Source: an uncultured Gammaproteobacteria bacterium (GTDB taxonomy: Bacteria > Patescibacteriota > Patescibacteriia > UBA11705 > JABHMO01). Taken from it: 64,000 bases of DNA. The DNA lies in contig CAZPYM010000001.1 of assembly GCA_964590105.1 (NCBI GenBank), positions 76,768 to 140,767 on the forward strand, given 5' to 3'. The notes beneath the pieces are model-generated. The model was not told where the DNA came from, searched no databases, and saw only the letters and a program-made list of their open reading frames with translations. Made by a program: the position numbers and the translations under genes. Positions 34,577-46,857 of the stretch are shown here, piece by piece; position 1 is the stretch's first letter, and each line of letters starts with the position of its first letter.

Positions 34577-37336
34577 ATGTTTAAAAAGTTTTTTAAAGAT
34601 CCAAACCAAAAAGTGCTGGATAAAATGCAGCCAATGGTGGATAGCATCAACGCGCTTGAAGCTGAAATAGAAAAATTGACTGACGAAGAGCTGAAGCAGA
34701 AAACCGAGGAATTAAAAGCGCAAATAAAATCAGGAAAAACACTTGACGATATAATGGCGCCTGCTTTTGCCGTGGCGCGAGAAGCCAATCGTCGGACAAT
34801 TGGGATCAGGCACTATGATGTTCAGCTTATCGGCGGCATAGTCCTGCACCGCGGTGAAATAGCGGAAATGAAAACCGGCGAGGGAAAAACTCACGTGGCC
34901 GCCCTGGCTTTGTATTTAAACGCGCTGGCCGGCAAAGGCGCGCACTTGATCACGGTAAATGATTATCTGGCTCAGCGCGACGCCGGCTGGAACGGCCCGG
35001 CCAATCACTTGCTCGGGCTTTCGACCGCTTGTCTTATCAATCAGCAGGCGCTTATTTACGATCCTGAATATATTAATGAACAAACAAAAGACAAACGTAT
35101 TCAGCAACTTCGTCCGTGCACGAGAAAAGAAGCATATCTGGCCGACATTACCTACGGCACCAATAGCGAATTTGGTTTTGATTATCTGCGTGACAATATG
35201 GTTCCGCGACTCGATGATCAGGCGCAACGCTCATTGTATTTTGCGATTGTGGATGAAGTTGACTCAGTTTTAATTGACGAGGCAAGGACGCCTTTGATTA
35301 TTTCCGCTCCGGCCGAAGAATCAGCCAAGCTTTATCAAAAATTTTCTCAATTAGTGCCGCGCTTGGTGGAAAACCGTTCAATCGGGCCAAATCCAAAAGC
35401 TGAGCAGACAATAACCGGCGAAGGCGATTATAATGTTGATGAAAAAATGCGCACCGCGACTCTGACAGACAAAGGAATCGCCAAAGTTGAAAAAATGCTG
35501 GGCATTGGCAATATTTATAATGAAGGCGGAATCCAAATGGTGCATCATCTGGAGCAGGCTCTGAATGCGCACGCGCTCTACAAACGTGACCGGGATTATG
35601 TTGTGAAGGACGGTGAAGTGATTATTATTGACGAATTTACCGGCCGGCTGATGCATGGACGGCGATATTCTGAAGGACTGCATCAGGCGATCGAAGCTAG
35701 AGAGGGCGTTGAGGTGCAAAAAGAAAGTCGGACACTGGCGACCATTACTATTCAAAATTATTTTCGCATGTATGAAAAATTGTCTGGCATGACCGGCACG
35801 GCGGCTACGGAAGCGGAAGAGTTTTCTAAAATATACAAATTGGACGTGACTTTGATTCCGACCAACAGCCCGATAATTCGAAAAGATCTTCCTGACAGAA
35901 TTTATTCTTCAGAACAAGGAAAATTCCAAGCGGTTGCCCGTGAGATCAAGCGCCTGCATGAAAAAGGCCAGCCGGTTCTGGTGGGTACGATTTCCATTGA
36001 AAGAAATGAAGTCTTGTCCGCGCTATTGAAAAAAGAGGGCATTCCGCATGAATTGCTCAATGCCAAAAATCATGAAAATGAAGCGCAAATTCTGGCGCAG
36101 GCTGGACGCGAGGGCGCGGTAACCGTGGCGACCAATATGGCCGGACGCGGCGTGGATATCAAGCTTGGTGGCGATGGCGCTTCAGAAGAAGAACATGAAA
36201 AAGTTAAAAATCTCGGCGGGCTCTTTGTGCTCGGCACGGAAAGACACGAAGCCAGGCGCATAGACAATCAGCTCCGTGGCCGCAGTGGCCGACAGGGCGA
36301 TCCTGGAGCTTCTCAATTTTATATTTCACTTGAGGATGATCTGATGCGCATTTTCGGATCCGAAAGAATAAAAAATATAATGCAGCGCCTCGGCGTGCCG
36401 GAAGATCAGCCGATTGAAAATAAATTTATTTCGAGCGGCATTGAAAAAGCGCAACTCCGAGTTGAGGGCAATAATTTTGATGTTAGGAAACATTTGGTTG
36501 AATATGATGACGTGATGAATAAACAGCGCGAAATTATTTACAAAAGAAGAAAAGAAATTTTGCGGTCAGCGGCGAAAAATCCGGAAAGTTCAAAAAAAGT
36601 AATCTGGCAGCTGATTGAAGGCGAAATAGATCAGTTGGTTTCTTTTCATACAGCCGGCGCAGATCAAGCGCAATGGAATTTACAGGAAATTTGCGAAGTG
36701 GCTGGAACTATTTTCCCTTTTACCGGCGATTCCTGCGCTACAATTGAAAGCATAGAAAAAATTGCCGGCGATAGGGCGCAGGATGCGGTGGCCAGAACGA
36801 ATATTATAAATTTTTTACTTAAAATCGCCAAGGAACAATACGAACTGTTGGAGAAAAGTGTAATTGAGAGGACCGGCAACGTGGAAAATATGAGAATGGT
36901 TGAACGCGAAGTAATGATTCGCAGTATTGATAATTTGTGGGTTGATCATCTGGATGCTATTAACGCGCTACGATCTGGAATTGGTTTGCGTGGCTATGGC
37001 CAGCGAGATCCGCTGATTGAATTTCAAAAAGAATCATACCGGATGTTTACGCAGCTGCAAAATTTGATTCAAAAACAAGTTGTTTACACTATCTTTAAAA
37101 TAAGTTTTGCCGGCCAGATGGCCGCGTCGGTCATGCAAGATCAAAACGCGCGCACGAGCGATATCAAGAGCGATTCGCAATTCAAAAACACGGGAGCTGA
37201 TCCGTATGCCCGGGCCCGCAAATCAGATGCGCCGATTATTACGCCAAAAACCCGCGATTCTTCCGGCGATAAAGTCGGCAGAAATGATCCGTGTCCATGC
37301 GGAAGCGGAAAAAAATATAAAAAGTGTTGCGAGTAA
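34577..37336 (+). CDS. secA: preprotein translocase ATPase SecA
   Basis: Full-length SecA with DEAD motor motifs and a C-terminal zinc finger CPCGSGKKYKKCC. Confidence 0.9.
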   Translation: MFKKFFKDPNQKVLDKMQPMVDSINALEAEIEKLTDEELKQKTEELKAQIKSGKTLDDIMAPAFAVAREANRRTIGIRHYDVQLIGGIVLHRGEIAEMKTGEGKTHVAALALYLNALAGKGAHLITVNDYLAQRDAGWNGPANHLLGLSTACLINQQALIYDPEYINEQTKDKRIQQLRPCTRKEAYLADITYGTNSEFGFDYLRDNMVPRLDDQAQRSLYFAIVDEVDSVLIDEARTPLIISAPAEESAKLYQKFSQLVPRLVENRSIGPNPKAEQTITGEGDYNVDEKMRTATLTDKGIAKVEKMLGIGNIYNEGGIQMVHHLEQALNAHALYKRDRDYVVKDGEVIIIDEFTGRLMHGRRYSEGLHQAIEAREGVEVQKESRTLATITIQNYFRMYEKLSGMTGTAATEAEEFSKIYKLDVTLIPTNSPIIRKDLPDRIYSSEQGKFQAVAREIKRLHEKGQPVLVGTISIERNEVLSALLKKEGIPHELLNAKNHENEAQILAQAGREGAVTVATNMAGRGVDIKLGGDGASEEEHEKVKNLGGLFVLGTERHEARRIDNQLRGRSGRQGDPGASQFYISLEDDLMRIFGSERIKNIMQRLGVPEDQPIENKFISSGIEKAQLRVEGNNFDVRKHLVEYDDVMNKQREIIYKRRKEILRSAAKNPESSKKVIWQLIEGEIDQLVSFHTAGADQAQWNLQEICEVAGTIFPFTGDSCATIESIEKIAGDRAQDAVARTNIINFLLKIAKEQYELLEKSVIERTGNVENMRMVEREVMIRSIDNLWVDHLDAINALRSGIGLRGYGQRDPLIEFQKESYRMFTQLQNLIQKQVVYTIFKISFAGQMAASVMQDQNARTSDIKSDSQFKNTGADPYARARKSDAPIITPKTRDSSGDKVGRNDPCPCGSGKKYKKCCE

Positions 37337-37342
37337 TGTTTT

Positions 37343-37741
37343 TTGAAAAATATGCTCAATAAAAAATTACCAAAAATTATAAAGAATATTGGTTTTGATT
37401 TTGATTGGAGTGAGAACAAAGTTTGGGCACTTGATTTTCCGGTCGAAGAAATGTTGCTTTCGGATTTGGCCTGGCATTTTGACATACCATTTTGGGATTT
37501 TTCGGATGATAGTTATAATCTCTCGCCCAATCAAGTTATTTCCGACCCTGAAAAGTACAAAATTGAATATGATCGGACAATGAAAGCTGATTTGTCATAT
37601 CCAATTGATATTATGGAAAATAAAGGGCGTTGGTTGATACTTGATGGCCTGCACCGGCTTGTTAAGTTGAAAATTCTCGATTACAACAAAGTTAGTGTCA
37701 GAAAAATACCAAGGACAGAAATTCCGAAAATTCAAAAATAA
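37343..37741 (+). CDS. ParB/Srx-like nuclease-domain protein
   Basis: WLILDGLHRL matches the ParB_N/sulfiredoxin DG(H/L)HR motif. Confidence 0.5.
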   Translation: MKNMLNKKLPKIIKNIGFDFDWSENKVWALDFPVEEMLLSDLAWHFDIPFWDFSDDSYNLSPNQVISDPEKYKIEYDRTMKADLSYPIDIMENKGRWLILDGLHRLVKLKILDYNKVSVRKIPRTEIPKIQK

Positions 37742-38229
37742 TTTTACTGTATATTTTTAAAAATTTATTTTATCAAATAAAAAAAACGAGCTATCCATTT
37801 ATACTTAGGATAGCTCTTGTGAACCTTGATCAGGAGGGCGCGTCCGAGCGACGCCGGGCAGGCGAGTGACAAACCTTCGTTCGGTTCAAAACAGTCTGTT
37901 TCAACCCGGCCGACCTGATCCCTTCCGCCCGGCTTCTGCATTGACGAAGCCTTTCGGAATCAGATGTATAATAGCATGGCTACTATGTTTTGTCAAGCTT
38001 AGGCGGCGTTGCTACAAACAGAAACCTTTTTGTACACAGAGAGGTTTTTTTGATTGTGATATAGTAAAATTATATGGCGGAATTATTTAAAGGAAATTAT
38101 TGGATCAAATCAACGCATTTGACGACTTTGAATTATGCTTGGTTTATGAATGTGGTTTTGTGGTTGCAAAATTAATTTAAATGAGCTAGAATATCTGCGA
38201 GTGCAATTCTTAAATTATTTATTGATTTT

Positions 38230-40308
38230 ATGGCAAAAAAAATGAAAAAGATCCACAAAGTTAGATTAACGGTCGCGGCCATTCTGGTATTGGCTTGCTT
38301 GTTGATGTTTTTTGACGCGCCGCAGGTATATGATAGGGCAATTGATTATTTAAATGGAAAAATGGGAACAGAATTTTCTCATTTCAAGAGTATTCCTTTC
38401 AGATTAGGATTAGATTTACAGGGAGGAACTCATTTGGTTTATGAAGCTGATACTGAGAAGATAGATTTTGCGGAAAAAAGCGATGCCGTGGAGGGCGTTC
38501 GCGACGTAATTGAGCGCCGAGTAAATGCTTTTGGCGTGGCCGAACCCGTGGTGCAAATAAATAAAGCCAAGGGCAAATGGCGGGTCATCGTGGAATTAGC
38601 TGGAATAAAAGATGTTAAACAGGCAATCGCCATGATCGGCGAAACGCCGCTTTTGGAATTCAAAGAAGAAAACACCGAACCGGCGCGCGAACTGACGCCG
38701 GAAGAACGGCAAGGTATGGAAAGTTTTAATAAAGAAGCGAAAGAAAAAGCAAATATTGCCATGAAGGAGGCATTGTCCGGCAAAGATTTTGCTGAAGTGG
38801 CCAAAGAATATTCAACAAGCTCTGATATTGATGTTCAGACAGAAGGCGACACTTTCACCGTCGGCAGCGCCTATGATCTTGGTTGGATCGACGGCAAAGG
38901 CGGCTATGCGTTTTTGTATGAAAAAGCCGGAGAAACAGAGCCGGGCCAGCTTTATCCAAAGTTAATTGAACAGCCAAACGGCTATTATATATTAAAAGTT
39001 GAGGACAAGCGTGAAACAGGAGAAGAAGTAAGGGCCAGTCATATTTTGATTTGTTACAACGGAGCTGAACGTTGCGACAAAGAAACAACCAAAGAAGAAG
39101 CAGAACAAAAAATTAAAGAAGTAAAAGAAAAGGCGACTGACAAAAACTTCGCTGATTTGGCAAAAGAATATTCCACCGGTCCGACCGGCCCTGACGGTGG
39201 CGACCTTGGCTGGTTCGCGCAGGGACAAATGGTCAAGGAGTTTGATGATACAGTTTTCAATATGGAAAAAGGCGCTATCTCTGATATTGTGGAAACTCAA
39301 TTTGGTTATCATTTAATTTTCAAAACCGATGAAAGGGCTCTGGAGGAATACAAGGTCACCAATGCTTATATTAAAACAAAAACTGAGGCTGATATTTTAC
39401 CGCCGGCTGATCAATGGAAAAATACGGAATTAACCGGTAAGCAATTGAAAGGTTCAAGAGTTGAATTTGATCCAAATACCAATCTGCCTCAGGTTGCCTT
39501 GCAGTTTAATGATGAAGGTAAAAAACTTTTTGCCGAAGTAACCACCCGCAATGTCGGCAAACCAGTGGCGATTTATCTTGACGGCGCGCCAATCAGCGTT
39601 CCTCGAGTAAACGAAGCTATTACCGGCGGAGAGGCGGTGATTACCGGCGATTTTGACGTTCAGGAAGCGAAATTATTGGTGCAAAGATTAAACGCGGGCG
39701 CCCTGCCTGTGCCAATTAAACTTGTCAGTCAGCAAACTGTTGGCGCGAGCCTTGGCAGTGATTCATTGCAAAAAAGTTTATTCGCGGGAATTGTCGGATT
39801 GATTTTGGTAATGCTATTCATGATTATATATTATCGATTGCCAGGTCTCTTGGCGGTAATTGCATTGATTATCTATGGCGTTGCTGTTTTGTTTATATTC
39901 AAAGTAATCCCAGTAACCCTGACCCTAGCCGGTATTGCCGGTTTTATCTTGTCAGTTGGTATGGCAGTGGACGCCAATGTGCTTATTTTCGAAAGATTAA
40001 AGGAAGAACTGCGCATGGGCAAGCCGCTCGGAGCGGCCATTGACGAAGGATTTAAGCGCGCCTGGACTTCTATTCGCGACGGCAATGTTTCCACTCTTAT
40101 TACCTGCTTTATTTTAATGTGGTTCGGCACGAGCATGATCAAAGGTTTCGCCATAACGCTTGGAATCGGCGTTTTGATGAGTATGTTCTCAGCCATTGTT
40201 GTTACTCGCCAATTTTTACATGTTTTTGTTAATCCAGAAAAGCAGAGCAAGCGCTTGTGGCTTTTTGGAGTAAAGAGTAATAAAGGAGATGATGCCAATA
40301 ATAAATAA
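38230..40308 (+). CDS. secD: protein translocase subunit SecD carrying an inserted parvulin-type PPIase region (one intact and one degenerate PpiC domain) in the periplasmic head
   Basis: SecD base (GLDLQGGTHLVYEAD…) and C-terminal TM bundle (…GMAVDANVLIFERLKEE…). In between: VRASHILI…GGDLGWFAQGQMVKEFDDTVFNMEKGAISDIVETQFGYHLIFKTDER (parvulin), preceded by a degenerate copy (…DFAEVAKEYS…DLGWID…GYYILKVEDKRE). Confidence 0.75.
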   Translation: MAKKMKKIHKVRLTVAAILVLACLLMFFDAPQVYDRAIDYLNGKMGTEFSHFKSIPFRLGLDLQGGTHLVYEADTEKIDFAEKSDAVEGVRDVIERRVNAFGVAEPVVQINKAKGKWRVIVELAGIKDVKQAIAMIGETPLLEFKEENTEPARELTPEERQGMESFNKEAKEKANIAMKEALSGKDFAEVAKEYSTSSDIDVQTEGDTFTVGSAYDLGWIDGKGGYAFLYEKAGETEPGQLYPKLIEQPNGYYILKVEDKRETGEEVRASHILICYNGAERCDKETTKEEAEQKIKEVKEKATDKNFADLAKEYSTGPTGPDGGDLGWFAQGQMVKEFDDTVFNMEKGAISDIVETQFGYHLIFKTDERALEEYKVTNAYIKTKTEADILPPADQWKNTELTGKQLKGSRVEFDPNTNLPQVALQFNDEGKKLFAEVTTRNVGKPVAIYLDGAPISVPRVNEAITGGEAVITGDFDVQEAKLLVQRLNAGALPVPIKLVSQQTVGASLGSDSLQKSLFAGIVGLILVMLFMIIYYRLPGLLAVIALIIYGVAVLFIFKVIPVTLTLAGIAGFILSVGMAVDANVLIFERLKEELRMGKPLGAAIDEGFKRAWTSIRDGNVSTLITCFILMWFGTSMIKGFAITLGIGVLMSMFSAIVVTRQFLHVFVNPEKQSKRLWLFGVKSNKGDDANNK

Positions 40309-40311
40309 TAT

Positions 40312-41214
40312 ATGTACAAAATAATTCAACGTAGAAAAATTTGGTTAACAGGTTCCTGTCTGGCTGTCGGGCTTAGCATAATCTTCTTGGCTGTCTGGGG
40401 GCTGAAGCTGGGTATTGATTTTACTGGTGGAAGCTTATTGGAAGTTAAATTTTTGCAGGAGCGGCCTGGTCCGCAGGATGTCCGCGCTATTGTTGATAAT
40501 CTTGAATTGGGAAGTGAAGTGGTTGTCCAGGCAACGGGTGACAAAAATATGATTGTCCGATTTCAGCAAATAGAAGAAGATACTCATCAACGCATATTGG
40601 AAAAATTAAAAGAAAAATATCCGGACAATATACAGGAAGAGCGTTTTGAAGCGATCGGGCCGTCAATTGGCGCAGAATTAAAAACCAAAGCAATATATGC
40701 GATTATCGTGGTGATTATTGCCATTGTTCTCTATATTGCCTGGGCTTTTCGCAAAGTTTCCTGGCCGGTCAAGTCCTGGAAATACGGATTGATTGCCATT
40801 GTTGCGCTGGTGCATGACATTATGATAACGCTCGGCGTTTTTGCTATCCTGGGCAGATTCGCGGGAGTAGAAGTCGGCTTGCCGTTTGTGGCCGCGCTTT
40901 TGACAATCCTTGGTTATTCGGTAAATGACACAATTGTAATCTTTGACCGCATTAGGGAAAATCTCGGCCGGCTGGTTAAAACAAATTTTGAAGAAGTTGT
41001 TAATAGGAGCGTTAATGAAACTCTGACGCGTTCAATCAATACGGCGCTCACGACTCTCCTCGTTCTTGTCGCGGTTTTCTTTTTTGGGGGCGTTTCAATC
41101 AAATATTTTGTTCTGGCTCTGATTATCGGTATATTTTCAGGGACATACAGTTCAATTTTCCTGGCCAGTCCGCTATTGGTGGTGTGGGAGAGGTGGAAGA
41201 AAAAAAGAGAATAG
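40312..41214 (+). CDS. secF: protein translocase subunit SecF
   Basis: SecF TM bundle with a conserved P-loop-like periplasmic domain; directly follows secD. Confidence 0.85.
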   Translation: MYKIIQRRKIWLTGSCLAVGLSIIFLAVWGLKLGIDFTGGSLLEVKFLQERPGPQDVRAIVDNLELGSEVVVQATGDKNMIVRFQQIEEDTHQRILEKLKEKYPDNIQEERFEAIGPSIGAELKTKAIYAIIVVIIAIVLYIAWAFRKVSWPVKSWKYGLIAIVALVHDIMITLGVFAILGRFAGVEVGLPFVAALLTILGYSVNDTIVIFDRIRENLGRLVKTNFEEVVNRSVNETLTRSINTALTTLLVLVAVFFFGGVSIKYFVLALIIGIFSGTYSSIFLASPLLVVWERWKKKRE

Positions 41215-41262: not shown

Positions 41263-41449
41263 TTGTAAATTCTTAACGTGGGTTTTTAGCTAGAGGTTGA
41301 GTTAGTTGGGTATTTTTAAGTGATTGTTTCGATTTGCGTGTATCAGCAGCACTTTTTGGAATATTGACAAAATTTAGTGATATGCCAAGATATATATAGA
41401 AACGTCTTTTTCATTTTGAAAAAGACCATTGCTGAGGCTGGAGGAGAAG

Positions 41450-41713
41450 ATGAAAACTGTGAAATGTGCGGGATGCAAAGGGACAGGGTATGCTGAAAAA
41501 AGGAGTTACCTCGGCCAATCGTCAGTGGGTATATGCTCCGGTTGTGGTGGTACGGGGAAAGTTCCTGCAGAGTACGACTGCTATGTTTGCCATGGCAAGG
41601 GCGGGTCTTATTATCAGACATACAATAAGGACTCAAAAGGGCGAATCACGAAAGGCAGTACCGTTTGGAAAAAATGCAACAATTGTGGAGGCTCGGGTAA
41701 AAAACACGTCTAG
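41450..41713 (+). CDS. small stand-alone DnaJ-type zinc-finger protein (four CxxCxGxG repeats)
   Basis: CAGCKGTG, CSGCGGTG, CYVCHGKG and CNNCGGSG; strong SD GGAGGAG at 41440..41446; start at MKTVKC. Confidence 0.6.
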   Translation: MKTVKCAGCKGTGYAEKRSYLGQSSVGICSGCGGTGKVPAEYDCYVCHGKGGSYYQTYNKDSKGRITKGSTVWKKCNNCGGSGKKHV

Positions 41714-43465: not shown

Positions 43466-45082
43466 ATGGATATTTTCGGGTTGCAGCTATCATTTGACTG
43501 GAGCTGGATATACAATCTCGGGACGCAGCCTCTGTATGTAATCATGTGGCATTTTTTTGTTAATGGCGGCTGGATTTTGGTTTTGGTTGTGCTTATTTAT
43601 GGCGGCATGATCAACTATGTTTATTGGATGCAGTGCAAGTTTGCGGCCAAACAAACTTATGTTTTTCTGGCCATAGACATTCCCAAGAATATTTTGCAAA
43701 CACCTCGGGCTGTCGAAAATATTTTCACGGCCATGGCCGGCGCGCAGCAGCCTCTTGATTGGCATGAAAAATATTTATTTGGCGAATTTCAACTTGGCTA
43801 CAGTCTAGAAATCGTCAGCATTGACGGCTTTATTCAATTTATAATTAGAACTCCGAGCCAGTTCCGCAATCTGGTGGAAGCGTCTGTTTATTCGCAATAT
43901 CCTGAAGCGGAAATTACTGAAGTTCATGACTATACTGCGGAAATTAATGTCAGCTTTCCAAGTGATGAATATAATTTATGGGGCGCTGACTTGGTTTTGG
44001 TGAAGCCTGATTATTATCCGATTAAAACCTATAAAGAATTTCAAGAAGAACTGGATAATGAATTCAAAGATCCAATGGCCGCTCTGCTCGAAGTAATGAG
44101 CACAATCGGTCCGGGCGAGCAGATTTGGTTTCAGCTTATGATTGCTCCGGCTGATATAGGTTGGGAAAGTACGGGCGTTAAAGCAGTAAATAAAATAATT
44201 GGTATTGAAGAAAAATACAAGAAAAATGTTCTTGACTATATTAGTGACGTGCCGCTCAAGGCCCTGGAAATTGTTGGCGATTCATTGTTTTCCAGCGAAG
44301 GAAAGGTTGCTGAACAAAAAAAAGATGAAAAGTTCAACATGATGTTTCTCGATCCGATTAAAAAAAGAGAAGTGGAGACTATTTTGCAGAAGGTTGATAA
44401 AAATTGTTTCATGTGCAAGTTGCGCTATGTTTATTTTGGTAAAAGAGAAGTATTTAAAAAAGGACTCGGCGTGTCCGGCGTAATGGGCGCGATCAAACAA
44501 TTTGGCGTCACGGGCTTGAACGCTTTTAAGCCGGGGAAAAACAAGACCCAGGCTAAGCTGTTTTTGAAAAAACCGCGCATGTCGGTCAAGCAGAATTTGA
44601 TGTTGAAAAATTTTAAAAAAAGAAATCCGGATACTTGCAAGGGGAAATACCTGCTCAGCGTGGAAGAATTAGCCACCTTGTTCCACTTCCCATATATTGA
44701 GGTCAAGGCTCCAATGGTCAAGAAGATCGAATCGAAAAAAGGCCATGCTCCGATTGGTCTGCCAGTGGAAGAAAAAGCGGCCGCTGGAGAAGTGGAAGAA
44801 ATTGAAGCGCCAACGCCCCTGGAGTTTGGTGAAAAAGTGCCAGTGGTTGATTTTGATAATGATTATTTTGAAGAGCGTTTTGCTGTTGACAAGTCCGGCC
44901 AGTCAGACAAAATCCGTAAACAGCAATTAGTGAAAAAATTGGAAGAAGCCGGTATTTTGAAAGCAACTAAAACCGATAATAATAATGATGATCAAGATGA
45001 TGCTCCTCCTTTTAACGTTGAAAATAAAATTGATTCCGAGGATGGTGATCAGGCCACACCTTCCAATCTTCCTTTTGCCTAA
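43466..45082 (+). CDS. membrane protein of unknown function (N-terminal TM helices, large soluble domain, acidic tail), encoded immediately upstream of a VirD4-like ATPase
   Basis: Hydrophobic N-terminus (WILVLVVLIYGGMINYVYWM); no recognised catalytic motif. Confidence 0.5.
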   Translation: MDIFGLQLSFDWSWIYNLGTQPLYVIMWHFFVNGGWILVLVVLIYGGMINYVYWMQCKFAAKQTYVFLAIDIPKNILQTPRAVENIFTAMAGAQQPLDWHEKYLFGEFQLGYSLEIVSIDGFIQFIIRTPSQFRNLVEASVYSQYPEAEITEVHDYTAEINVSFPSDEYNLWGADLVLVKPDYYPIKTYKEFQEELDNEFKDPMAALLEVMSTIGPGEQIWFQLMIAPADIGWESTGVKAVNKIIGIEEKYKKNVLDYISDVPLKALEIVGDSLFSSEGKVAEQKKDEKFNMMFLDPIKKREVETILQKVDKNCFMCKLRYVYFGKREVFKKGLGVSGVMGAIKQFGVTGLNAFKPGKNKTQAKLFLKKPRMSVKQNLMLKNFKKRNPDTCKGKYLLSVEELATLFHFPYIEVKAPMVKKIESKKGHAPIGLPVEEKAAAGEVEEIEAPTPLEFGEKVPVVDFDNDYFEERFAVDKSGQSDKIRKQQLVKKLEEAGILKATKTDNNNDDQDDAPPFNVENKIDSEDGDQATPSNLPFA

Positions 45083-45099
45083 GAAACATTAATACGATT

Positions 45100-46857
45100 A
45101 TGACGGAAAAGATAACCCCATTTGCTTTTACAAATTTTCGAAATGCGCGCAAGCGCTTTGGCATCAAAACCGACGATCGACGCCGGCATATGTATATAAT
45201 TGGAAAAACCGGTATGGGTAAATCAGTTTTAATTGAAAACATGGTTTATTCTGATATTGCCAATGGAAATGGCTGTTGTCTGGTGGATCCGCACGGCGAT
45301 TCGGCTGAGCTGATGATCAATTGCATTCCTCCAAATAGAATCAATGATGTGATATATATTAATCCGGCGGATTTGGAATATCCGATTGCTTTTAATGTGC
45401 TGGAAAAAGTGGATAATAAATATCGCCACTTGGTGGCTTCGGGCCTGGTCGGAGTTTTCAAAAAAATCTGGGCGGACAGTTGGGGACCTCGTTTGGAATA
45501 TATTTTGCGCAATACCATATTGGCACTTCTGGACTATCCCGACAGCACGCTCCTTGGTGTCAATCGCATGTTGGTGGACAAGGAATACCGCAAAAAAGTA
45601 ATTGCCAAAGTTCAGGATCCAGTGGTAAAAATGTTTTGGCAGGATGAATTTTCCAAATATAATGAAAAATTTCTAACTGAAGCGATCGCGCCTATTCAAA
45701 ATAAAATTGGCCAATTCTTATCAACTTCTCTAATTAGAAATATTGTCGGTCAGGTGAAGTCAACAATTGATTTGCGCAAGATTATGGATGAAGGCAAGAT
45801 TGTCATTCTGAATCTTTCAAAGGGCCGGATCGGCGAGGATGCTTCCGCCTTACTCGGCGCCATGATTATTACCAAAATTCAGCTAGCCGCTATGAGCCGC
45901 GTGGACATGCCGGAAACGACGAGAAAAGATTTTTATCTTTATGTAGACGAATTCCAAAACTTTGCCACAGAATCATTTGCCAATATTTTATCAGAAGCCA
46001 GAAAATATCATTTGTGCTTAACAATTGGCCATCAATACATCGGCCAGCTCGAGATTGGTGGTAATACGGTTGTTCGTGATGCAATATTCGGCAATGTCGG
46101 CACAATGATTGTTTTTCGGGTTGGCGCAGCTGACGCGGAATTTTTATCCAGGGAATTTGCCCCGCATTTTACAGAAGAAGATTTAGTTAACTTGCCGAAA
46201 TATAATGTATATTTGAAATTAATGATTGATGGCGTTGCTTCAGATCCTTTTAGCGCCACCACCCTGCCGCCAATTTCCCAGAAAACCTCGAGTGAAGAAA
46301 GCGTGATCAAAGTAACCAGAGAAAGATACGCCAAAGAAAGGGATGTGGTGGAAGACAAAATTACTCGTTGGAGCGGTGTGGAAACCGATGCAATGCTGGA
46401 AAAAATGGAAATGGACATTGTGCACAAAAAAGCGCAAAAAATTATTAGCAAAAAATTGGATTTTTTGGCCAGCATGCGAGGTGAAAATCAGCGCGAAGAA
46501 GAGCAAACGCCGGAAGAAAAAGTAATAATAGCAAAAAAAGAAGGAGACGGAAAAGAAGATCTAGCTACAGGGGACAAGGATGAAATTGTTAATATTGTAA
46601 AATGCGACAGTTGTGGAGCCAAAACAAAAATTAATTTTAATCCTGATCCCCGCCGCCCGGTCTATTGCAAGGATTGTCTTAAGGATTTTCGGCGCAAACA
46701 AGCGCTCGAGGAAAATATAAGTCAAAGAAGACAGGATACTCGCGGCGCGGCAGCTCCGGCCGGAGGCGACCGGCCACGAGCCAAGGAAGTTTCTTTGTCT
46801 GATTTGCAAAAAAATAAACCTTCTTCGTTTCGAGCTCCCAAAAGAGAGCGCTCTTAA
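45100..46857 (+). CDS. VirD4/TraG/TrwB-like (type IV coupling protein family) P-loop ATPase lacking the N-terminal TM anchor, with a C-terminal CxxC…CxxC zinc ribbon
   Basis: Walker A IIGKTGMGKS followed by VDPHGD (compare DPKGE in VirD4), Walker B LYVDEFQNF, and a C-terminal CDSCGAKTKINFNPDPRRPVYCKDC. Confidence 0.6.
   Translation: MTEKITPFAFTNFRNARKRFGIKTDDRRRHMYIIGKTGMGKSVLIENMVYSDIANGNGCCLVDPHGDSAELMINCIPPNRINDVIYINPADLEYPIAFNVLEKVDNKYRHLVASGLVGVFKKIWADSWGPRLEYILRNTILALLDYPDSTLLGVNRMLVDKEYRKKVIAKVQDPVVKMFWQDEFSKYNEKFLTEAIAPIQNKIGQFLSTSLIRNIVGQVKSTIDLRKIMDEGKIVILNLSKGRIGEDASALLGAMIITKIQLAAMSRVDMPETTRKDFYLYVDEFQNFATESFANILSEARKYHLCLTIGHQYIGQLEIGGNTVVRDAIFGNVGTMIVFRVGAADAEFLSREFAPHFTEEDLVNLPKYNVYLKLMIDGVASDPFSATTLPPISQKTSSEESVIKVTRERYAKERDVVEDKITRWSGVETDAMLEKMEMDIVHKKAQKIISKKLDFLASMRGENQREEEQTPEEKVIIAKKEGDGKEDLATGDKDEIVNIVKCDSCGAKTKINFNPDPRRPVYCKDCLKDFRRKQALEENISQRRQDTRGAAAPAGGDRPRAKEVSLSDLQKNKPSSFRAPKRERS

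Follow-up and report, generated by a model that had tools for sequence, protein, structure and literature searches.

Canonical SecD and SecDF proteins, as solved from Thermus thermophilus (3AQP) and Deinococcus radiodurans (5XAN), combine an N-terminal transmembrane (TM) helix, a Sec_GG motif, a P1 domain made of a base and a head, and an RND-type TM bundle with a proton-relay Asp, with secF adjacent. In current models, the P1 head binds the chain as it emerges and swings under the drive of the proton gradient (PMC6028853, PMC8669966). How such a chain is handed over from the Sec channel to folding factors is unsettled, and PpiD, SurA, PrsA and Mpn444 have been proposed to act at the translocon via transient contacts only: PpiD/YfgM act at SecYEG (PMC9643414), SurA interacts with the SecDF-containing holotranslocon (PMC9987972), and the Mycoplasma parvulin lipoprotein Mpn444 cross-links specifically to SecD (bioRxiv 10.1101/2024.09.05.611430). 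Here we describe a secD gene in a 64-kb window (the whole stretch of DNA analysed, 64,000 nucleotides (nt) of contig CAZPYM010000001.1) whose product shares the canonical elements but carries a parvulin module of ~235 residues where the T. thermophilus protein (TtSecDF) has ~26 residues. In the predicted structure, two parvulin units make up this module, one nested within the other, and we consider it most likely to serve as a foldase or chaperone tethered to the translocon.

The gene and the segments of its product were delineated as follows.
38230..40308, + strand: secD coding sequence, 692 amino acids (aa) plus stop, from the list of open reading frames (ORFs), the TIGR01129 match and the best solved-structure match (3AQP SecDF, E = 2e-86).
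38230..38676, + strand: residues 1-149, covering the N-terminal TM helix (7-29), the Sec_GG motif, the opening portion of the P1 base and a hinge strand, LLEFKE (142-147), from Pfam, DSSP on the AlphaFold (AF2) model and the 3AQP alignment.
38677..39015, + strand: residues 150-262, segment a of the outer parvulin-like unit, from the second Pfam Rotamase stretch and a hidden Markov model (HMM) cross-match.
39016..39342, + strand: residues 263-371, inner complete parvulin in canonical order, from Rotamase_3, the PrsA and Pin1 alignments and Foldseek.
39343..39375, + strand: residues 372-382, relocated first strand (beta1') of the outer unit, from AF2 strands and comparison with one-unit SecDs.
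39376..39711, + strand: residues 383-494, P1 head subdomain, from Pfam SecDF_P1_head, aligning to TtSecDF from residue 143.
39712..40305, + strand: residues 495-692, remaining P1 base and TM2-TM6 with Asp581, from Pfam SecD_SecF_C.

Pfam matches along the protein were Sec_GG (residues 56-75, E = 8.4e-06), SecD_1st (88-148, E = 1.2e-17), Rotamase_3 and Rotamase (256-367, E = 6e-36 and 6e-31, in two stretches), SecDF_P1_head (397-494, E = 5.6e-29) and SecD_SecF_C (496-664, E = 1.7e-15), and the NCBIfam secD model TIGR01129 reached 407.6 bits (cutoff 244.4), with TIGR00916 at 239.5 (cutoff 148.6). Residues 57-145 aligned to TtSecDF 33-116 and residues 383-680 to TtSecDF 143-439, leaving ~237 residues (about 235 extra) between the Pfam base and head models in place of TtSecDF 117-142; the boundaries of the P1 base and head rest on the Pfam models and this alignment. 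The proton-relay residue D581, equivalent to TtSecDF D340, was invariant in 70 family sequences, and the neighbouring SecF keeps Asp206 (VND) and Arg240 (TLTR), the latter corresponding to R671 in the alignment to TtSecDF. Judged from these matches, the SecDF motor is intact, with an N-terminal TM helix, P1 base and head, a five-helix bundle bearing the TM4 Asp, and an adjacent secF. The original prediction of a genuine SecD with an N-terminal TM helix, a P1 base and a C-terminal TM bundle, interrupted within P1 by a PpiC/parvulin domain, is thus borne out by the family and domain matches and the AF2 helices, and mapping onto canonical SecD places the insertion at the base/head junction. Structural statements refer to the AF2 model of this SecD, which had a predicted local distance difference test (pLDDT) value of 85 overall and 91-96 in the inner domain, and a predicted template modelling (pTM) score of 0.47.

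The inner unit (residues 263-371) was 45% identical to Bacillus subtilis PrsA over the parvulin domain (1ZK6, E = 6e-20; 4WO7, E = 2e-19) and 35% identical to Pin1, and its Rotamase_3 score was 124 bits against a cutoff of 22.5. By Foldseek it superposed on PrsA 4WO7 over 105 columns at a root-mean-square deviation (rmsd) of 2.3 Å and on the Pin1/Ess1 catalytic domains with target TM-scores of 0.74-0.79; the superpositions were contiguous and full-length, the unit's own first strand included (105-116 columns, rmsd 2.3-2.9 Å). Its key residues are H271, C275/C282, S315, G317 (the acid position), M334, F338, T356 and H361. H271 and H361 align to the dual-histidine motif of Pin1 (H59/H157), T356 takes the position of Pin1 T152, and L326, M334 and F338 form the proline pocket (Pin1 L122, M130 and F134). 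The 120 best database clusters matching the window SecD (55-73% identity, 650-714 aa) all had the same set of Rotamase and SecD domains, and among these two-unit sequences H271 was conserved in 119, H361 in all 120, T356 in 119, S315 in 120, L326 in 119, M334 in 119 and F338 in 120. The pair Cys275/Cys282, located in the beta1-alpha1 loop, was found in 120/120 two-unit relatives; as the spaced motif H-x3-C-x5-8-C it occurred in 118/120 two-unit and 0/118 one-unit proteins.

The one-unit proteins are SecDs with a single parvulin at the same site (118 clusters, e.g. P0286), and they share with the window protein the junctions, the long alpha1 helix and the trailing, relocated beta1 strand. In these proteins the parvulin HMM matched over positions ~24-111 only, and positions 2-13 reappeared just downstream, with an 'xSHILI' sequence at the relocated strand. 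A full catalytic set was conserved across the permutation: Asp188, Thr/Ser230 and His235 (last strand) each in 118/118 clusters and His255 (relocated first strand) in 117/118. The AlphaFold model of a one-unit protein placed beta4 at 233-243, followed by a turn and beta1 at 250-259 (pLDDT 94-97), and the top 50 Foldseek matches to this model were only SecDF and RND-pump structures, which say nothing about its parvulin part. On the model and this conservation, the insert of one-unit SecDs is predicted to be a natural circularly permuted parvulin.

The outer unit of the window protein shares this permuted frame. Residues 150-262 gave the second Pfam Rotamase stretch, and an HMM of residues 146-262 matched the inner domain (E = 1.4e-10), so that by sequence this segment is a true but degenerate parvulin homologue. 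It begins with the long helix alpha1 (157-182), continues with the core and ends with a last strand (251-257), and has neither an N-terminal strand nor either catalytic His; position 253 is N, Y or E instead of His. Residues 199-215 form a lineage-specific loop that is disordered in the AF2 model. Within this loop lies a 9-residue insertion, DTFTVGSAY (38848-38874, SecD residues 207-215), present in 2/120 relatives and modelled with pLDDT below 50.

Directly after the inner unit, residues 372-382 have the family consensus EYxVSRILI, resembling the parvulin beta1 sequence EVKASHLLI. The AF2 model contains two strands of 24 residues each, 251-274 and 359-382, with a constant index sum of 633 (251+382 = 274+359; H271+H361 = 632), which indicates that the two form one antiparallel ribbon. 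In this ribbon the last strand of the outer unit (251-257) would pair with 376-382, and the first strand of the inner unit with its own last strand. The conservation of the catalytic His residues agreed with such an arrangement: at the outer positions equivalent to H271 and H361, His occurred in only 7/120 and 11/120 sequences and never together, a pattern expected if both elements belong to one relaxed domain. Based on DSSP, the lengths of the Foldseek alignments and these conservation patterns, the inner parvulin is modelled as lying within the beta4/beta1 hairpin of an outer parvulin whose strand order is circularly permuted. Two other topologies were rejected. A simple tandem of two parvulins does not fit an inner unit that is contiguous and complete, an outer unit that lacks its N-terminal strand, and a beta1-like strand that follows the inner unit; in a tandem of two permuted units, the conserved His residues would end up in separate domains, and strand 251-274 would also have to fold back on itself, whereas the AF2 model shows it to be continuous. 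The degenerate second copy proposed earlier is therefore real, but it does not simply precede the complete one.

This arrangement sets the window SecD apart from the described translocon-associated parvulins. PrsA (4WO7/1ZK6), the membrane-anchored foldase of monoderm bacteria, likewise sits on the outer face of the cytoplasmic membrane, but it is a lipoprotein whose parvulin has Asp at the acid position and is embraced by an NC chaperone domain; here SecD itself serves as the anchor, no SurA_N/NC domain is present, the acid position is Gly317, and the Cys275/Cys282 loop is extra. SurA (1M5Y), which appeared among the fold matches, similarly pairs a non-catalytic parvulin, the first in sequence, with a second parvulin (P1 inactive, P2 active), yet its domains are sequential, in canonical strand order and set in an NC chaperone core, whereas here one unit is permuted, the other is nested within it, and there is no NC core. 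PpiD-YfgM at SecYEG and Mpn444 with SecD are membrane-tethered parvulin chaperones at the translocon exit as well, but as separate, non-covalent partners, while the window parvulin is covalent within the SecD chain. The NCBIfam models for PrsA, SurA and PpiD recognised nothing beyond the parvulin part and fell far short of their cutoffs (for PrsA, 64 with a cutoff of 361), and with no NC or SurA_N domain the window SecD is placed by its sequence outside all three families, unlike stand-alone relatives (P0237 and others), which do carry SurA_N. Compared with the window SecD, the one-unit SecDs of Komeilibacteria, Buchananbacteria, Kerfeldbacteria and Moranbacteria have a single permuted parvulin that appears fully catalytic, with no nested domain and no Cys pair.

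SecD proteins with the insert were found in >230 database clusters (the 120 best two-unit and 118 one-unit clusters), all from Patescibacteria and all named plain 'SecD'. The two-unit relatives, where named, were 'protein translocase subunit SecD' from Falkowbacteria, Kuenenbacteria, Parcubacteria or Patescibacteria, the nearest being from Falkowbacteria (72%) and Kuenenbacteria (71%); the window is accordingly from a Patescibacteria genome. Scanning GTDB species genomes yielded 80 SecD loci, the best 80 of at least 600 matches and so no unbiased census, which were classed by the gap between the base and head HMMs. Two parvulin units (gap 239-295 aa) were present in 15/80 loci, from Magasanikbacteria, Uhrbacteria, Parcubacteria and Patescibacteria and including two Peregrinibacteria with fused SecDF; one unit (gap 134-153 aa) in 8/80, from Buchananbacteria, Komeilibacteria, Kerfeldbacteria and Moranbacteria; and no insert (gap 12-58 aa) in 57/80, from Nomurabacteria, Ryanbacteria, Saccharibacteria, Daviesbacteria, Chloroflexota, Gastranaerophilales and others. 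Some loci bear the titles 'uncultured Gammaproteobacteria', 'Binatia' or 'Lysobacteraceae'; these are probably mislabelled bins and were not used as evidence of occurrence beyond Patescibacteria. In a neighbour-joining tree of the SecD core, which is crude, lacks support values and was used only for the clustering of insert-bearing SecDs, one- and two-unit proteins were intermixed in a single clade, apart from the insert-less SecDs of the Paceibacteria and Saccharibacteria types. Four insert-less SecDs (L023, L026, L029 and L056; gap 19-58 aa) fell inside this clade and probably represent repeated secondary losses. The architecture is thus clade-wide in many lineages of the Candidate Phyla Radiation (CPR) and no peculiarity of one genome, being public in the databases under the plain name 'SecD'.

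We favour with reasonable confidence the reading that this is the SecD of an intact proton-driven SecDF with a nested two-domain parvulin module at the base/head junction, which most likely acts as a translocon-tethered foldase or chaperone. In a wall-bearing Patescibacteria cell, the module would keep a foldase or chaperone like PrsA, PpiD or SurA directly where the Sec channel opens, as the covalent equivalent of PrsA, PpiD/YfgM, SurA and Mpn444, all of which work in trans. If the P1 head binds the emerging chain, as current models hold, a parvulin seated at the base of the head would come upon that chain too, and chains caught by the head would encounter a prolyl isomerase or holdase while still emerging. 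The module would then have chaperone or isomerase activity, move together with the head and benefit the cell. A pairing of the same two domains also occurs independently outside SecD, in proteins of ~280 aa (P0264 and P0265) that consist of a TM anchor, a SecDF P1 head and a Cys-pair parvulin; genes for such head-plus-parvulin proteins (L082:3947-4807, also in L083 and L084) directly follow a gene for a trypsin-like protease (Trypsin_2). According to the original prediction, the fusion would couple translocation to prolyl isomerisation, which could be of use in a reduced genome without a separate SurA or PrsA. Within the 64-kb window, the part of the genome that was examined, no further parvulin ORF was found. 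Several points weigh against the foldase reading. The pTM of the model is low, so where the module sits with respect to the head and the SecY exit is left unpredicted; the strand pairing and the C275-C282 distance were taken from DSSP and Foldseek summaries only; the Pfam scan of the window SecD found no chaperone (NC) domain of the SurA_N/PrsA type; and the window protein and its closest relatives carry Gly317 ('YSTGPTGPDGGDLG') where active parvulins have Asp or Cys.

The last of these points bears on catalysis. At the acid position (Cys113 in Pin1; Asp in the 'STD' of PrsA), the 120 two-unit sequences had Glu in 84, Asp in 18 and Gly in 18, and no consistent compensating acid was found near Gly317 in the window protein and its closest relatives. 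The SurA/PrsA catalytic signature claimed in the original prediction therefore stands for His271, Thr356 and His361 and fails at the Asp/Cys position, which leaves isomerase catalysis in the window protein uncertain. The PpiD parvulin domain and the SurA P1 domain are themselves inactive, yet they are functional parts of chaperones. Against this background it could be argued that the insert is catalytically dead and works as a holdase, as a spacer lifting the P1 head through the wall or S-layer, or as a docking platform, and not as a prolyl isomerase. Besides Gly at the acid position in the window protein and 18/120 relatives, this explanation can draw on the loss of both His residues from the outer unit and on the precedent of the inactive PpiD and SurA P1 domains, the PpiD-YfgM structure 8zht being among the fold matches. 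We nevertheless think it unlikely: His271, Thr356, His361, M334 and F338 are almost invariant, and the acid position is still acidic in most two-unit relatives (Glu or Asp in 102/120) and in all one-unit relatives (Asp in 118/118), which argues for selection on the active site across the family. Moreover, the 'STGP' variant is also present in the stand-alone PrsA-like protein P0237 and so may be a tolerated form of the active site. Taken by sequence, the two-unit family as a whole looks catalytic, and the inner domain of the window lineage may isomerise only weakly or serve mainly in binding.

Considerably less probable, in our estimate, is that the module acts on the SecDF motor or on the partners of the cell instead of on general clients, by regulating or locking the head swing or by binding surface proteins of a host or episymbiont. 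The insertion lies exactly at the base/head hinge, directly after strand 142-147, the relative orientation of the domains is unpredicted at this pTM, and Patescibacteria are presumed to be episymbionts; all three would suit such a role. The residues conserved in the module are, however, those of a parvulin substrate pocket, the known translocon parvulins work on clients, and nothing specific speaks for this explanation. A frameshift or assembly chimera of secD with an adjoining PPIase gene, considered only since metagenome assemblies can be chimeric and without any point found in its support, has a practically negligible chance of being correct, because the insert is internal and flanked by the two halves of SecD, the frame is unbroken across 692 codons (38230-40308 (+) in the ORF list), the GC content is flat over the gene (0.41-0.46), four contigs, drawn from several sources and up to 563,767 bp long, carry the identical 692-aa protein, and >230 clusters, the 120 best relatives alike, together with 23 GTDB species genomes have the same junctions; the frameshift-fused neighbour that the original prediction had envisaged as its refutation was thus not what we found.

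As to where the inner unit came from, exhaustive searching with the 251-aa insert returned 95 representative clusters at E <= 1e-30. Among the top 150 matches, ~16 to 18 were SecD fusions, and most of the others were stand-alone proteins of non-CPR bacteria in which two or three parvulins follow each other in tandem. The Cys-pair motif recurred in stand-alone, PrsA-like proteins with SurA_N and parvulin domains (P0199, P0261, P0416, P0417 and P0419), some with a C-terminal thioredoxin domain; the named members came from DPANN archaea (Nanoarchaeota, Nanobdellota and Woesearchaeota), and none of the best 120 matches to one such protein was named Patescibacteria. Identities between parvulin units, computed over a 61-column core, were as follows.
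Inner unit against Cys-pair stand-alone proteins: 56.5%.
Cys-pair stand-alone proteins among themselves: 57.9%.
Inner unit against the one-unit SecD core: 46.4%.
Inner unit against its own outer unit: 33.6%.
These values favour a history in which a permuted unit was already in place and a PrsA-type parvulin was acquired into its hairpin. Since the two-unit SecDs of Uhrbacteria and Peregrinibacteria have no Cys pair, the inner unit may instead stem from an internal duplication. The recurrence of the Cys pair hints at an oxidative-folding type of parvulin common to ultra-small bacteria and archaea.

The searchable literature yielded no account of either a SecD-parvulin fusion or a permuted parvulin, in line with what had been supposed for this architecture, and no NCBIfam model is specific to it; it is public in databases, where it is annotated only as SecD, and apparently undescribed. 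As a conserved covalent fusion of a parvulin into the mobile P1 domain, it constitutes natural gene-fusion evidence for a partnership between SecD and foldases, and it gives structural and biochemical work a stable complex within one chain. The one-unit SecDs are apparently the first natural circularly permuted parvulins, with the catalytic His residues on either side of the new chain ends, and the nested two-unit form would be a clear case of one domain evolving inside another, with the active site of the host domain decaying afterwards. With regard to annotation, several hundred entries named only 'SecD' hide a foldase module, and the fusion would moderately to strongly surprise specialists of Sec or chaperones. 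A wider picture can be sketched, tentatively and with rather more doubt than the foldase reading itself: in a large clade of Patescibacteria, SecDF would have become a covalent 'pull-and-fold' machine, with a permuted parvulin in the P1 hinge and, in the window lineage, a second, Cys-pair parvulin nested inside it whose closest stand-alone kin are PrsA-like foldases of DPANN. If true, the proton-driven swing of the head would present emerging chains to the foldase, the permuted parvulin would be the first natural one, and the fusion would provide Rosetta-stone evidence that SecDF and parvulin chaperones are one functional unit across bacteria.

The surroundings of secD are housekeeping genes (Mur ligase, MurB, secA, secD and secF), and the murein genes nearby imply a cell wall. 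The order along the + strand is secA, a 132-codon ORF, secD and secF, and the neighbouring features are listed below.
34577..37336, + strand: secA, 919 aa, upstream of secD, assigned by reading the ORF translation.
37343..37741, + strand: 132-aa ORF between secA and secD.
38074..38175, + strand: 33-codon ORF, 55 nt upstream of secD.
40312..41214, + strand: secF, 300 aa, starting 3 nt past the secD stop, TIGR00966 304.7 bits against a cutoff of 160.
41429..41713, + strand: 94-aa ORF just 3' of secF.
43466..45082, + strand: 538-aa ORF.
45100..46857, + strand: 585-aa ORF for a TrwB/TraG-type coupling-protein-like ATPase.

The 132-aa ORF had no Pfam match; its 'LILDGLHRL' segment, compared by eye, we take to be similar to the DGxHR motif of the ParB/sulfiredoxin type. 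The gap upstream of secD (488 nt) is AT-rich, with a GC-rich island at 37775-38050 that lies mainly on the minus strand (~37960 to 37780). On that strand the island shows a near-consensus promoter-like TTGACA-17-TATTAT with a TG (37996-37968), as well as a hairpin (37791-37819) followed by T8, which suggests a candidate small RNA of ~180 nt; an Rfam scan of the 488-nt gap gave no match at the gathering threshold and none at E <= 1. Arrest peptides upstream of secDF are known from other bacteria. The 33-codon ORF, which is annotated as a gene in a public record, showed no visible RAPP-like or otherwise obvious arrest motif. On the other side of the export genes, the 94-aa ORF contains little other than DnaJ-type CXXCXGXG zinc-finger repeats (Pfam DnaJ_CXXCXGXG, E = 3e-08) and would encode a stand-alone zinc-finger mini-protein adjoining them. 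Further downstream, the 538-aa ORF, with no Pfam match, precedes the 585-aa ATPase (TrwB_AAD_bind, DUF87 and TraG-D_C), and this pair (43466-46857) could be the remnant of a conjugative or type IV secretion-like element.

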